A program made the translations under genes and the position numbers. From a virus (lineage: Duplodnaviria > Caudoviricetes): a stretch of 64,000 nt of DNA. The DNA is taken from the IMG/VR virus record IMGVR_UViG_2513237213_000006, positions 8,894 to 72,893 of that record; one strand, given 5' to 3'. The notes under the pieces are model-generated. The model was not told the origin of the DNA and did not search any database. It saw only the letters and a program-made list of their open reading frames with translations. Below are positions 1,535 through 62,720 of the stretch, piece by piece (position 1 is the stretch's first letter; the number at the start of each line of letters is the position of its first letter).

Positions 1535-2052
1535 ATCAGACCAACAACAGAAGAGTATTATATTTATCTAATACTAACGTATTATCTAAATATAAAGGTG
1601 AGTGGGTTCTTCAAAGGTGAATCCTTCCGATTTGGCAATCGGTTCAGGCAAAGCCTGAATGTCTTGCAAGCAAGCCAACCTTCGGTCTTTTAGTTTTCTC
1701 TTTTCTCTCCACATCGGAGGAATGGTCAGGCAAAAAGAGAGCAGCGCGAGGCTGGCGCCGGGCATGGATAAGCCTTTCCGATTTGGTGACCATCGCGAAT
1801 AAGTGGTATTGATGACCTGCCACGGTCTGAAATTGCCGTATAAGCGGCTGTTTCTCATATTGGTTTTGTGCAATCAAAAAAGTGACCGCGAGAAACGCCG
1901 TCTAAGGCCGTTGAAAAAGGAAACGCATATAAACTATCGCATCGGAGTGTAAAAGGCGGCTACGCCGCGAATAGAGCCGTTAGGCTTAATTTCTCCGATT
2001 TGCAATAAAAATTACCCGCAATGGTGGCTTAGATGGCCAACATGGGGGGAAT

Positions 2053-2379
2053 ATGGTGCAGGCAACTGCCAAACCATACATGAAGGAGGTGGAAAATATG
2101 TATATCCCAGTCAAAGAACAGGAAACTGTTATTCAGATTGACCGCACTGGCGACATTGCTCGGGTGTATTCCACGGATGCAACCATGATCTGCAAGCTGG
2201 ACAAAAAATATGAGCGATACCAAGTCCACAAGCAGAACAGGAAAATCGTTGGTGTCGAGTATCGCGTTGATAAGCGGCTTCTTTCGTGGCGGTCTGCTCC
2301 GGCTGTAAGTCACATGACGGACGAGCAGAAAAAGGCTGCAGGGGAGCGATTGAAAAAAGCTCGGCAAAAGAAGAAGTAA
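2053..2379 (+). CDS. Hypothetical phage protein
   Basis: AAGGAGG SD before MYIPVK; basic C-terminus; clean ORF. Confidence 0.65.
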   Translation: MVQATAKPYMKEVENMYIPVKEQETVIQIDRTGDIARVYSTDATMICKLDKKYERYQVHKQNRKIVGVEYRVDKRLLSWRSAPAVSHMTDEQKKAAGERLKKARQKKK

Positions 2380-2672: not shown

Positions 2673-3218
2673 ATGGCAGGACAGTCCAAGATTGATAAAC
2701 TGGGGCTGGGAGCCAAGGTTCTCGCCCTTCGACAAGACCTCACCTGTGAAGAGATTGCCGACGAGATCAACAATCGGTATCTTCCTGCAGGTGCAGAGCC
2801 TGTCAACAAAATGACGATTTCGAGATACTGTACTTCCCACGGTATGACTGATATGAACCGAAACGACATTTCCAAGAGCGTCACCAACTTTGATGCGCTG
2901 GGCGAAGCCTGTAAGGTTAGGGACAGACTGGTCAAGCGCACCAACAAAATGGAGCGATTCCTCGATGAAATCAAAGAGGATGAGGAAAAGTTGTCGGAGT
3001 ATGCAAGTATCAATAACGCATACCTGAACTGCTTACGACAGTTGAATGACCTCAATGAGTCGGTATCGAAAATCCAAAAAGAACAGCTGGGAATGAGCAA
3101 AGTGCGTCAGGTTTTGGGAGTAGTCCTGACAACGCTGAACAAGTACCCATCTGTTCGAGCAGAGATTTTTGAGCAGCTTCGCAATTCGGAAGTATACGAA
3201 ACCATCAGAGCAATTTAG
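2673..3218 (+). CDS. Terminase small subunit-like (N-terminal HTH plus coiled coil)
   Basis: Directly upstream of terL; HTH-like start and helical body. Confidence 0.6.
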   Translation: MAGQSKIDKLGLGAKVLALRQDLTCEEIADEINNRYLPAGAEPVNKMTISRYCTSHGMTDMNRNDISKSVTNFDALGEACKVRDRLVKRTNKMERFLDEIKEDEEKLSEYASINNAYLNCLRQLNDLNESVSKIQKEQLGMSKVRQVLGVVLTTLNKYPSVRAEIFEQLRNSEVYETIRAI

Positions 3219-3226
3219 AGGTATTC

Positions 3227-4855
3227 ATGGCAAAGAAAAATCAGCTTAGATTCTTTGATGAACTTGCTGAGGCTATGGATAAGACCTCGAAAAAGGGGAA
3301 TGGCACAGAAGCATTGCGGGTGCGGGTTCGGGACTGCGCCACATCACTGGAACTGTTTGCGAAAACCTATTTCCCGGATGTTTTTACATCTGAGTTCTCC
3401 GAACTGCACAAAGAAATTTTCAAATCAGCGGAGGAAATGATTTTAAGGCGTAAACGCCGGAAGAATTACTATGTACGAGCCGCTCCGCGTGGCCACGGCA
3501 AAAGTCAGGTAATCAGCTACCTGTTGATTATTTGGTGCATTTGCTATAAGTACAAACAGAATATTCTACTCGTTTCTGATACGCTCGACCAGGCCAAGTC
3601 CTTCATTTCTGCCATTAAGACAGAACTGGAAGAAAATGAGCGTATTAAAGCCGACTTCGGCGACTTATCCTCTGAGGAGAAATGGGCACAGGACAAAATC
3701 ATCACATCCAACAAAGTTCAGGTTTATGGGCGCGGTGCTGGGCAGAAATTGCGCGGTAACAAATACGGCTCTATTCGCCCCGAGTTGGTCATCATTGACG
3801 ATCTCGAGAACGATGAAGCTGTTGAAACTGAGGCACAACGCCGCAAACTATTCAACTGGTTTATGAAAGCCCTGCTGCCAGTAGGAACGCCGACCACCGA
3901 CTATATCTTTATCGGGACAGTTTTGCATTATGAAGCATTACTGCAAAAGTTACTTACAGAGCCAACCTTCTCGATGTGGGACAGAAAGCGGTATCAGGCG
4001 GTCACAAAGTTTTCTGATTCTCCCTTGTGGGATGAATGGGAAACTATCATGCTGGACGAAAACAACGATAACGCTGGCGAGGATGCTTACAAGTTCTACA
4101 AAAAGAACAGAGCGGAAATGCTAGAGGGCGTTGAGAGTCTATGGCCTGCAAGCGGTGCTGACTACTACGAAAACATGATGGAGCTTAGGGTGTCAGATCC
4201 TAGTTCCTTCGCGTCCGAGTATCAGAATGAACCGATTGATCCCTCGCAAGCAGAATTTTTGCCGGAATGGTTTGATTATTACTATGAACTTCCTGAAATT
4301 GTGGAGGTTTATGGTGCGTGTGATCCATCTTTGGGTAAAGCGAAATCAGACCGAGCGGCAATCATTTGGGCTGGCAAGGATAAGCAAGGCTACCTTTACA
4401 TACTGGATGTGCTAATGGGAAGGTATAAACCTGACCGAATCATTGACCTCATTATTGCAGGTTCTATGAAATATCAAAGCCACCTGAAAAGTGTGGTCAT
4501 TGAAACAGTACAATTTCAGGCTATGTTCAAGGACGAGGTGGCCAAGCGTGGACTCAATGCGGGTATTCAAATTCCCATAACTGAGTTTAACGACAAAACC
4601 CCGAAAGAGGTTAGACTGCGCGGCCTTATCCCGCGTATCAAAAATAAATATATCAAATTCCGCAAAGACCAAACGGTGCTTGTAAATGAGTTCCTGCGGT
4701 TTCCAAAAGCGTCTGATGACGGCATGGATGCGGTAAATATGATTTGCTCTGCGGCTTTTCCGGTAACAGGGCAGAAACTTGTTTTTGGAGGTATATCCTC
4801 TAATATTAGACCAAAATTCAACCCGATGGGGGGTATATTCGCCAGATGGAGATAA
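3227..4855 (+). CDS. terL: Terminase large subunit
   Basis: Walker A 'APRGHGKS', Walker B 'LVIIDDLE', coupling motif 'IGT', nuclease 'GACDPS' and 'DDGMDA'. Confidence 0.95.
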   Translation: MAKKNQLRFFDELAEAMDKTSKKGNGTEALRVRVRDCATSLELFAKTYFPDVFTSEFSELHKEIFKSAEEMILRRKRRKNYYVRAAPRGHGKSQVISYLLIIWCICYKYKQNILLVSDTLDQAKSFISAIKTELEENERIKADFGDLSSEEKWAQDKIITSNKVQVYGRGAGQKLRGNKYGSIRPELVIIDDLENDEAVETEAQRRKLFNWFMKALLPVGTPTTDYIFIGTVLHYEALLQKLLTEPTFSMWDRKRYQAVTKFSDSPLWDEWETIMLDENNDNAGEDAYKFYKKNRAEMLEGVESLWPASGADYYENMMELRVSDPSSFASEYQNEPIDPSQAEFLPEWFDYYYELPEIVEVYGACDPSLGKAKSDRAAIIWAGKDKQGYLYILDVLMGRYKPDRIIDLIIAGSMKYQSHLKSVVIETVQFQAMFKDEVAKRGLNAGIQIPITEFNDKTPKEVRLRGLIPRIKNKYIKFRKDQTVLVNEFLRFPKASDDGMDAVNMICSAAFPVTGQKLVFGGISSNIRPKFNPMGGIFARWR

Positions 4856-6165: not shown

Positions 6166-7123
6166 TGTAATCAGCTTCTCTTCCATGCAAGATGCGAGTA
6201 ATCCCGATGTACTACCGTTTGAGGCAGTCCTGGGGTATGTAGATACTCCTACGGACGCAACGCCCTGCGGCGGTTATAGTGGTTACAAAACTACGCTTAG
6301 TTCTGAAAATATTGACCTTGATTCCCTCGTGGGTAGCGGTGTCAATGTCTGCTGGTCTTACTGGCCGGAAGATAATATGACTCGGCACAACCCGCGTTTT
6401 AAGGTTGGAGTAATCGATGCTGCCGAATTGGACGGTACGGCAATTAAGGCAAAAGGGCACCTGTGGAAATCTGATTTTCCCGATGTGTGCGAGGTCGTGG
6501 AAAACGCCAAAGACAGCCTCGGTTTCTCTGTCGAAGTATATTCTGACGGAATTAAGATAGACCACAGCGAGAAAAACGCAACTTGCTTGGGAGTCCATTT
6601 TACTGGGGCTTCTATTCTGTATAAGTCGAAAGCGGCTTTTCAGAAAACCAAAATCATGTGCTCTATCATGGGCAACGAAAAGGAGATTGACGAAGTGAAC
6701 GAAGAAGTACAGAAAGCTCTTGACGAGCAGAATAAGGCTTTTGAAGAAAAGTTCGGTGCTCTCAATGAAACGGTTGGTAAGCTGACCGCAGCAGTTGAAA
6801 AGCTCTCTGCAAAGCCTGAAGAAAAGGAACCCGAACAGAAGGACGAGCCGCAGGCTATGGATTTTTCTGCTATGACGGATGCCATCAAGTCTGCAATCGC
6901 TGACGGTTTCAAGGCACAGAATTTCGGTGTACAGGAAAAGGCTCCGGAAGGTCGTAAGACTGAACAGAACCCCGGCACGGAAAAACAGCTGGATAACCAC
7001 GAAAAAACGGCTATGGAACTTTCCGCAGAAGTTCAGAAGGATGACAGCCTGACTCCCGCTCAGAAGTGGAGCAAGCAGCTGAGCATTTGGAACGAACATC
7101 GCGACGAGTTCGAGTCTAAGTAA
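6095..7123 (+). CDS. Prohead protease/scaffold protein (start probably ATG 6140)
   Basis: Between portal and capsid; 'GHLW...LGFSVE' protease-like N-domain and a charged coiled-coil C-terminus. Confidence 0.75.
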   Translation: MAWVKTKKMELTKRPMEKKTQSLSVISFSSMQDASNPDVLPFEAVLGYVDTPTDATPCGGYSGYKTTLSSENIDLDSLVGSGVNVCWSYWPEDNMTRHNPRFKVGVIDAAELDGTAIKAKGHLWKSDFPDVCEVVENAKDSLGFSVEVYSDGIKIDHSEKNATCLGVHFTGASILYKSKAAFQKTKIMCSIMGNEKEIDEVNEEVQKALDEQNKAFEEKFGALNETVGKLTAAVEKLSAKPEEKEPEQKDEPQAMDFSAMTDAIKSAIADGFKAQNFGVQEKAPEGRKTEQNPGTEKQLDNHEKTAMELSAEVQKDDSLTPAQKWSKQLSIWNEHRDEFESK

Positions 7124-7447
7124 TTAGGCAAACAAAGGGTAGGGGTTATTTATTAGGTGCACGCCTCAGCCCTGTGGAGGTTTTGATACAACTCCATGAA
7201 CTGAAAAAATAAAAACACCTAGTCGTGTGAGCAAAGAGAAACGAGACTCTTTCCATCACTTTTCTCATGGGTGTTCCGTCTTATCGTGGATGTTGAAAAA
7301 TCCCGCTAAGTATCTATAAGCGTTGTGGAAATACTTGTTCTTATCCAAGAGGTGTAAAACACTGCTCCGATAAAGAGGTATGGTAGTTGATTCCGAATAC
7401 TACTCACGAAAGATAAAACATGAGAGCCGCTTTTGCGGTCTTTTTTT
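7124..7447 (+). ncRNA. Candidate structured RNA between scaffold and capsid genes
   Basis: No ORF; nested stems TGGAG/CTCCA, AACACC/GGTGTT, AAAGAG/CTCTTT, TTATCG/CGATAA, AAGTAT/ATACTT, GTAGT/ACTAC. Confidence 0.45.
7424..7447 (+). terminator. Rho-independent terminator upstream of the capsid gene
   Basis: GAGCCGC-TTTT-GCGGTC followed by a T-run. Confidence 0.65.
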
Positions 7448-61460: not shown

Positions 61461-62204
61461 TCATACCTCCTGTATCTTGTCTGTTATCTTGAACACATCG
61501 ACCACCAGTTCCTTCTCGTTACGGTCATCTATATAGCATAGCACATATTTGCGGCTGACGGTAGCGGTCAACAGGACTCCTGGCTTGCCGTTTTCATACC
61601 TTGACTTGAACCACTCGGCCTTTTCTCTGTTGTCTGTCCAGCTGAGTCCATAACGCTCTCTCCCCGGCGATACGCCCCTGTATATGGTAATGGTGTCGGG
61701 CAGGTTGTTGTAGTATTCGAGATCCGCGGGTTCCATCAGGTGCTTCTTCGATGCGCTTCGGAAAAAATTGATTGCCTCTTTACGGCTTACGTTTATGTCT
61801 TGGTTCGGGTCTTCCTCGTCCAGCCAGCATTGCTTCAGATATTTTGCATAGTCCTTCTCGCTCATGTACTCACGGCAGAGCTTGAACCATGTCATTTTAT
61901 ACGGTCTGTTGATTAAGAGGTACAGATGGCCAACGTCGCTCCTGTCAATCAGCTCCATCATAAACTTGCGGTAAACCTTGTAGCCATCGGGGGTGGTTAA
62001 ATCCAACACTTCCCCGGTCTGTGGGTTCATGGAAATAGTGGAGGTGGTGAAGGGGTGAGAGCATATTCCCAGCCCCGGTAGGGCTTTGTTTTCTTCGATT
62101 GGCACTGCGTTAAACAGCAGTTTTGTTGTATGGCGTATTTCTTCAAGGTTGGTTTTCAAAATCTTATCCTCACTCTTCAAAATATTTACAGATACCTTTT
62201 TCAC
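61461..62204 (-). CDS. ADP-ribosyltransferase-like protein (R-S-E signature)
   Basis: 'TIYRG', 'GLSWT', 'RNEKELVV' in the canonical order. Confidence 0.6.
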   Translation of the reverse strand: MKKVSVNILKSEDKILKTNLEEIRHTTKLLFNAVPIEENKALPGLGICSHPFTTSTISMNPQTGEVLDLTTPDGYKVYRKFMMELIDRSDVGHLYLLINRPYKMTWFKLCREYMSEKDYAKYLKQCWLDEEDPNQDINVSRKEAINFFRSASKKHLMEPADLEYYNNLPDTITIYRGVSPGRERYGLSWTDNREKAEWFKSRYENGKPGVLLTATVSRKYVLCYIDDRNEKELVVDVFKITDKIQEV

Positions 62205-62367: not shown

Positions 62368-62396
62368 TTTACAAATAATCTGAAAAGTATTATAAT
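62368..62396 (+). promoter_or_regulatory. Promoter P1 of the repeat-mimic cassette
   Basis: TTTACA-N17-TATAAT. Confidence 0.7.
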
Positions 62397-62411: not shown

Positions 62412-62442
62412 GTATTCGCCCCGCATTGGCGGGGATGTATCA
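62412..62442 (+). CRISPR. Solitary type I-E-like repeat
   Basis: GTATTCG-CCCCGC-ATTG-GCGGGG-ATGTATCA; same stem and 8-nt handle layout as E. coli GAGTTCCCCGCGCCAGCGGGGATAAACCG. Confidence 0.6.
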
Positions 62443-62527
62443 GAAAATCAAATTTTATAATTTGAGAGCTGTGTAATATTTAAGGTCAGCCTGTCTGCGA
62501 TTGTAATTCCCTAAATATTCCTCGCTA

Positions 62528-62536: not shown

Positions 62537-62562
62537 GGGGGTTACAAAGCAGGTCAGCCGCA

Positions 62563-62639
62563 GTTTACCGCTGAATAAGTGGCTTAGAAAGTATAAGCGG
62601 CCTAGAACGACCTGTATGTTTACCGCCGAATAGGCGGCT
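62563..62639 (+). CRISPR. Type I-F-like mini-array (28-nt repeat, 27-nt spacer, 22-nt repeat)
   Basis: GTTTACCGCTGAATAAGTGGCTTAGAAA and GTTTACCGCCGAATAGGCGGCT; 20/28 and 18/22 identical to GTTCACTGCCGTATAGGCAGCTAAGAAA, with compensatory stem changes. Confidence 0.85.
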
Positions 62640-62714
62640 GTCAGGCTTCGGCCTGTGGATTGAAACACTTTATTTTTCTATTAAGGAAAAGGAAAAAGTC
62701 CCCCGCAAGGGGGC
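62640..62714 (+). CRISPR. Type I-C-like repeat, 31-nt spacer and GTC-led hairpin
   Basis: GT-CAGGC-TTCG-GCCTG-TGGATTGAAAC carries the exact 11-nt I-C handle; spacer is followed by GTCCCCCGCAAGGGGGC. Confidence 0.75.
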
Positions 62715-62720
62715 TTTTTC
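62697..62720. terminator. Bidirectional terminator
   Basis: CCCCC-GCAA-GGGGG flanked by A- and T-runs. Confidence 0.8.

Follow-up and report, generated by a model that had tools for sequence, protein, structure and literature searches.

Several classes of CRISPR-like RNA have been described with which a viral cassette can be compared. [quoted passage not shown] The known Cracr targets are cas or creT promoters, reached through similarity to the host CreA or CreR. Solitary repeat units, the Racrs, are likewise established and by definition have no functional spacer (Camara-Wilpert et al. 2023, PMC10651486). Viruses also bear mini-arrays for inter-virus competition, which commonly target relatives of the carrier (Medvedeva et al. 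2019, reviewed in PMC11656645).

The stretch analysed here, 64,000 nucleotides hereafter called the window, belongs to a contig (C5) that represents a phage: it encodes a large terminase and members of other phage families, two tRNAs and no cas gene, and its relatives in IMG/VR are 66–71 kb long with terminal repeats (Table 1). The names of distant homologues, together with the ruminant gut origin of the sequencing runs that share C5 DNA, suggest a rumen Selenomonas-like host. The host chromosome (contig C1 of the same assembly) carries a complete I-F system on one strand, in the order cas1, cas2-3, array and csy1-4; over G000:C1:1013555-1015930, the array lies between cas2-3 and csy1, with the same strand used throughout. 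There is no I-E or I-C array in the host assembly, and zero host spacers match the phage. The fifth host spacer has a 22/23 match on a second contig of the assembly (G000:C2:226871-226893). In the phage, the cassette adjoins the gene for a 247-aa phrog_4776 protein (window 61461-62204, minus strand), homologues of which, at 55–58% identity, occur on C1, C2 and C3. No RNA sequencing runs containing the cassette region were listed.

Table 1. Positions of the features discussed in the text; numbers without a prefix refer to the window.
Feature	Position	Strand	Details
Window	C5:8894-72893		contig of 72,893 bp, 45.7% G+C; 3.63-Mb, 10-contig assembly
Host I-F array	C1:1013714-1015844		36 identical repeats; Cas1 and Cas2-3 upstream, Csy1-4 downstream
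Terminal host repeat	L010:18-45		10-of-12 promoter-like site from L010:53; csy1 start at 130
Non-coding leader	1572-2052	+	about 480 nt, between a 115-aa gene (conserved in relatives) and the packaging module
11-nt motif TTCCGATTTGG, three copies in the leader	1625-1635, 1776-1786, 1993-2003		third copy with two changes
Extended hairpin containing the site	1829-1854	+	5 bp, 1x1 internal loop, 5 bp, tetraloop; interrupted T-rich tail next
PAM-like CC plus 11 nt	1836-1848	+	the 11 nt equal guide positions 1-11
phrog_1709 protein	2053-2379	+	
181-aa protein	2673-3218	+	conserved beside TerL
Large terminase	3227-4855	+	
Promoter-like site, cassette head	62368-62396	+	11/12 consensus matches
First I-F repeat mimic	62563-62590	+	full 28-mer, hairpin intact, CTTAGAAA handle; own covariance model 43.1 bits, E 6e-9; Rfam CRISPR-DR4 30.1 bits
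Guide-like inter-repeat segment	62591-62617	+	27 nt; positions 1-18 equal host repeat positions 11-28 except at 6, 12 and 18
Second I-F repeat mimic	62618-62645	+	hairpin intact, 3′ handle replaced; covariance model 22.5 bits, E 0.002; Rfam 19.6 bits
Terminator-like hairpin, cassette end	62692-62720	+	
G226 mini-array	L019 (G226:C19), about 1540-1400	minus	same genus, bacterial, 26-nt guide

Both our covariance model and Rfam recognize the two repeats of the cassette, a crRNA-like mini-array, and CC lies on the correct side of the candidate target, which bears out the initial annotation in its reading of an I-F cassette with a spacer. Where that annotation has to be corrected is in treating the spacer as an ordinary one. 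The "spacer" is a repeat fragment: its first 18 nt are the loop, 3′ stem and handle of the host I-F repeat, in which CC (repeat positions 9–10, within the stem) stands directly before the same 18 nt. By a whole-assembly search for CC plus the seed, all 36 host repeats present CC followed by matches to guide positions 1–5, 7–11 and 13–17. Guide and host repeat thus agree at 15 of 15 pairing positions plus the PAM, making the repeats far better targets than any site in the phage, and differ only at positions 6, 12 and 18, which are flipped out and unpaired in type I complexes, as known from I-E and I-F structures and from seed studies. Three mismatches over 18 positions would land exactly there with a chance of 1/816 (our own arithmetic), a figure that is weakened because some natural repeats of the family likewise have an A at guide position 6 and the homology ends at position 18; under stricter assumptions, the periodicity statistic ranges from 0.007 to 0.12. 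The phage's own two mimics carry a seed mismatch at position 2 (a different loop base), and the first has CT, not CC, so the guide would not bind its own locus; natural repeats of the genus include this position-2 loop variant, so it is not proof of design. The host I-F locus contains no CreR-like element, and no other guide target was found in 262 host-family genomes, nor any strong one elsewhere in the host assembly; the repeats are therefore the only strong targets.

Among these, the terminal repeat ends 8 nt before the promoter-like site of csy1-4. As a target it offers the PAM and 15 pairing positions, only 5 of them contiguous by a naive count, and the 27-nt footprint of the guide on it would extend to L010:54. 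The best explanation for the locus, one that we hold tentatively and at a little under even confidence, is that the cassette encodes a Cracr-type anti-CRISPR RNA whose guide would be directed at the host array repeats and the csy promoter, and that the matching site inside the phage is a hairpin. Host Cas6f would process the phage transcript and host Csy proteins would assemble on the 55-nt product, giving complexes that would bind the host array and the csy promoter but neither cut nor recruit Cas2-3, as pairing is limited to the 18 PAM-proximal nt. Csy would be soaked up and transcription of the array and of csy1-4 damped, combining sequestration with silencing as has been proposed for Cracrs, with the repeat as the operator.

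This repeat-directed reading, drawn as it is from sequence, has its weak points: it comes from one genome, the guide is 27 nt long, and it pairs with the template strand of the host array, which is the weaker orientation for blocking elongation in type I-E CRISPRi work. A further one lies in the predicted minimum-free-energy fold, where leader nucleotides 62549-62560 pair with the middle of the guide (62597-62614) and enclose the first repeat hairpin; given this predicted pairing with the leader, part of the guide sequence could be structural. An I-E-like repeat hairpin (window 62413-62443) lies on the same transcript as the I-F mini-array. The I-C-like guide of the same cassette has no notable PAM-flanked match in the phage, the neighbouring small proteins show no similarity to solved anti-CRISPR structures, and no acrIF24-like gene was recognized beside the cassette. 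If the guide is indeed repeat-directed, it would represent an undescribed anti-CRISPR route, in which the array itself and the effector operon are occupied and silenced. The target would be present in every array of that repeat type, and a changed promoter would offer the host no escape; the origin of such guides would also be laid open, with the CC within the repeat stem making the repeat a legitimate protospacer.

The phage contains a shorter match to the same guide. GTATAAGCGGC occurs exactly twice in the window, both times on the plus strand, at 1838-1848 and 62591-62601. CC at 1836-1837 precedes the first copy; the second follows directly on the full I-F repeat ending CTTAGAAA and hence represents guide positions 1–11, oriented correctly for a 5′-CC PAM (CC is the type I-F PAM and lies on the 5′ side of the target). 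The identity of 1836-1848 with CC plus spacer positions 1–11, as first annotated, is thereby confirmed. Past position 11, site and guide share scattered identities only, for 14/27 overall. When the 72.9-kb contig was simulated in 1500 first-order Markov replicates, a CC-flanked match pairing at 10 or more positions (6, 12 and so forth left out of the count) arose in 5 (P = 0.0033), which comes close to the chance of about 0.002 originally estimated. The site is also the best match outside the CRISPR array in the 3.63-Mb assembly, the runner-up having 9 pairing positions (C1:2403632); by our own arithmetic, about 0.4 matches of this quality would be expected across the whole assembly. The match is thus not trivially chance, and what is unusual about it is that it falls in the phage and in a non-coding gap, such gaps making up 8–13% of the contig. 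[quoted passage not shown]

The surroundings of the site suggest a more local explanation. Its 13-mer forms the loop and 3′ arm of the 1829-1854 hairpin, in which five pairs extend past the repeat-like core and whose predicted stability (-12.2 kcal/mol, z -3.4) was equalled by 0 of 200 shuffles; the hairpin passes a simple terminator scan, although its T run is interrupted. Most probably, the match arises since the guide is itself hairpin-derived, and the hairpin is a terminator or some other local structure. Locally, the site resembles the host repeat core at 14/15 nt and the second mimic at 15/17, including three bases 3′ of the seed; most of this repeat similarity follows automatically, because the site matches a guide that is repeat-derived. 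There is no full repeat at the site: a covariance model built from 26 family repeats and run unfiltered over the whole window finds the two cassette repeats only, with zero matches in 1.5–2.1 kb at E up to 10, and Rfam yields zero in 1540-2080. Two 10-mers of the cassette occur within 240 nt of the site, at 1797 and 2024, and eight such matches are found contig-wide, about the chance level. Units at 1789-1815 and 2011-2037 were considered as further repeat mimics and rejected, the covariance model being negative and the second unit being conserved in cassette-less relatives.

Between positions 1300 and 2300, no promoter, and so none overlapping the site, reaches 9 of 12 consensus matches, although late promoters of phages may depart from the canonical form. 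An 8-of-12 arrangement can be picked out by eye (1833-1838 and 1856-1861, 17 nt apart), a quality of match that is common. Taken at face value, it would set the protospacer between -35 and -10, as in CreR targets and in the G226 element discussed below. The site lies about 200 nt upstream of the packaging genes, and the 3′ 130 nt of the leader, directly before the first gene of the packaging module, are conserved in relatives. Variants of the TTCCGATTTGG motif recur in two relatives of the same architecture (L053 and L060), making it a candidate regulator or packaging-site motif.

Relatives of the phage were compared at both the cassette and the site. Neither the ten complete IMG/VR relatives, whose TerL is about 80% identical, nor two Logan relatives of the neighbouring 247-aa gene hold the cassette or any repeat-like unit, and their sequence at the position of the site is unrelated. 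A goat gut contig (X6) that differs by one base over 1542-2049 is the same phage and so uninformative. In a metagenomic relative about 85% identical (X2), a 2-nt deletion falls at 1847, within the seed, and another diverged one (X1) is alignable only from 1858 onward. No cassette-bearing relative turned up in the collections searched; blastn of both window ends against GenBank phages gave zero matches, as did exact-protein look-ups for two window proteins. One 2.7-kb Logan contig has an identical neighbour gene and a gap of the length of the cassette.

How much of this can be accommodated by a regulatory role of the site? The initial annotation had proposed that the phage may use host Cascade to regulate its own region upstream of the packaging genes. 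In its full form, the proposal makes 1836-1848 a genuine Csy operator at which phage RNA guides host Csy to repress or attenuate transcription of the packaging genes, so that late expression would sense host CRISPR status. The PAM, the seed and the non-coding leader location held up, and with them come the low chance expectation of an exact PAM plus 11 nt, the rank of the site as the best match outside the array, its pairing beyond the minimum of 9 bp for such RNAs, and the start of X1 homology just past the site, which fits a transcription unit beginning there; the logic of guided repression is, moreover, taken as proven in the same genus by G226. Against it, no promoter reaches the 9-of-12 level, and the hairpin, terminator-like, provides a self-sufficient explanation. 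The cassette is 60.7 kb away in the contig, the 36 host repeats are stronger competing sites, X2 has lost 2 nt at the site and X1 is not alignable there, the ten complete relatives have neither cassette nor site, and a phage would draw no obvious benefit from repressing its own packaging genes when Csy is present. We accordingly regard self-regulation of the phage as unlikely. A composite is more doubtful again: the guide would bind every one of the 36 repeats, also that next to the csy promoter, tolerating change only at flipped-out positions, and a weaker target copy in the packaging-operon leader would couple late expression to free complex. The likeness of site to guide might instead reflect shared descent from a repeat, the site being a decayed mimic left by a solitary unit or a recombination scar. 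Its 14/15 and 15/17 identities to the host repeat core and the second mimic, and the two cassette 10-mers within 240 nt, would fit such a relic; but neither the covariance model nor Rfam finds anything there, the 10-mer at 2024 sits in an element conserved among cassette-less relatives, and eight 10-mer matches in the contig are about what chance provides. We consider a relic very unlikely. Should the site prove functional, this phage would be the first seen to tie its late genes to host Csy; should it not, seed matches to repeat-derived guides will need to be judged against repeat-like hairpins and not against random sequence.

The cassette, for its part, could be a pure decoy in the manner of Racrs, which would only sequester Cas6f and Cas7f; the 27-nt segment would then be a truncated repeat that guides nothing, and the internal match a product of chance. 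Racrs are well established (PMC10651486), repeat mimics are widespread in related viral contigs, among them single I-F units fused to the same downstream module (L066, L068 and L074), and the transcript bears an I-E-like hairpin in a host that has no such system. That two repeats enclose a crRNA-sized insert, however, makes a mini-array of the cassette and not a solitary unit; the truncated repeat begins exactly after CC and departs from the host repeat at 6, 12 and 18; and the CreR-like element of the same genus indicates a use of this repeat family in guided repression. A mere decoy therefore seems improbable to us. Fainter still is the prospect of an inter-virus weapon, the guide of which would target a rival phage's allele of the region or its repeat-mimic locus, with the carrier's own copy having diverged past the seed to escape. 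Viral mini-arrays commonly target relatives (PMC11656645), and the carrier does keep a partial match only; yet no full protospacer was found in IMG/VR, the GenBank phages or 262 host-family genomes (rumen phages being poorly sampled), and a random phage protospacer would not copy 15/18 nt of a CRISPR repeat. A Cracr-type RNA with an unusual target, the host's own repeats, would remain the most likely identity of the cassette.

Searches for comparable junctions between repeat and repeat-derived guide covered viral, metagenomic and bacterial sequences. A strict junction pattern gave zero matches in viral contigs; its sole match among metagenome contigs lies inside an apparent coding region and was rejected as chance. 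A looser pattern found L065 among the viral contigs and, in 185,579 species genomes, one Moraxella array along with chance matches in coding sequence. The cassette DNA, compared with 262 host-family genomes, matches only ordinary I-F arrays and a few mini-arrays. L065 (IMGVR_UViG_3300020169_000468, minus strand, about 6350-7160) is a five-repeat viral array in which three guides share the seed TATTAATRTAC, as in Cracr arrays, and a fourth opens with the loop and 3′ stem of the repeat, its register being that of the phage guide. In the Moraxella oblonga NBRC 102422 array (NZ_BCYQ01000024.1, L091:1-520, minus strand), most I-F spacers have at their start the array's own repeat in reverse complement, beside CC, and one opens with the loop, 3′ stem and handle of the repeat; own-repeat spacers are found on both strands. 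Apparently, this array has incorporated its own sequence, or that of repeat mimics, as spacers, and because these were taken from its own repeat beside CC, the CC inside I-F repeats can serve as an acquisition PAM. The case explains the register of the phage guide and does not prove its function.

Other contigs carry I-F mimics in different arrangements. One (L017, minus strand, about 1530-1440; G034:C81) has a promoter, two I-F mimics 14–15 nt apart, mutually pairing flanks and a terminator, and looks like a structured solitary-repeat RNA. The viral contigs L066, L068 and L074, of 147–236 kb, each contain a single I-F mimic fused to a hairpin plus GGATTGAAAC module. The same module lies 3′ of the second mimic in the window and recurs in unrelated large phages.

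The closest bacterial parallel is the mini-array of G226. About 80 nt downstream of it lies a CC-flanked partial target that matches the guide at positions 1–5, 7–11 and 13–15, with mismatches exactly at 6 and 12. The target falls within the promoter region of a gene that is cas3-like in having Cas3 HD and helicase signatures, each just short of the Pfam cut-off; an I-F array is found 7 kb away on the same contig. This arrangement is the CreR layout, and the element lends independent support to guided repression by this repeat family. Its first repeat is near-identical to the phage mimic at both ends; the repeat is common to the two elements and the guide is not. In both, the guide is 26–27 nt long, the PAM is CC and pairing is partial, with mismatches tolerated at 6 and 12. 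Bacterial CreR/CreA elements sit beside their target promoter within a CRISPR-Cas locus; next to the phage cassette there is no target, the candidate one within the phage lying 60 kb off.

Compared with the viral systems, the cassette shares with inter-virus mini-arrays the presence on a virus of a cas-less array using host Cas proteins; it differs in that no protospacer match is found in related viruses, in its degenerate repeats and in a guide that is shortened and comes from a repeat. With Racrs it has in common I-F repeat hairpins in an anti-defence-like island, and its second mimic and downstream module recur in solitary form in other viral contigs; unlike Racrs, it has two repeats that bracket a crRNA-sized insert with guide-like features. 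The likeness to Cracrs goes furthest. As in these, a degenerate repeat, a guide and a second degenerate repeat of the host's subtype lie on a mobile element outside any CRISPR-Cas locus, the guide is shortened with PAM-proximal partial complementarity, and the unit forms part of a multi-unit transcript in an accessory island. In contrast to known Cracrs, the phage guide measures 27 nt and not 17–21, and it resembles no host CreA- or CreR-like guide; a phrase search of the literature on repeat-targeting guides returned unrelated papers only. On the strength of this sequence analysis, a repeat-copying guide directed at the array would be new, as would a target within the phage, neither being described in the literature searched. 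What would set the cassette apart from every Cracr described there is that its guide copies the CRISPR repeat itself, so that each repeat of the host array becomes a target.
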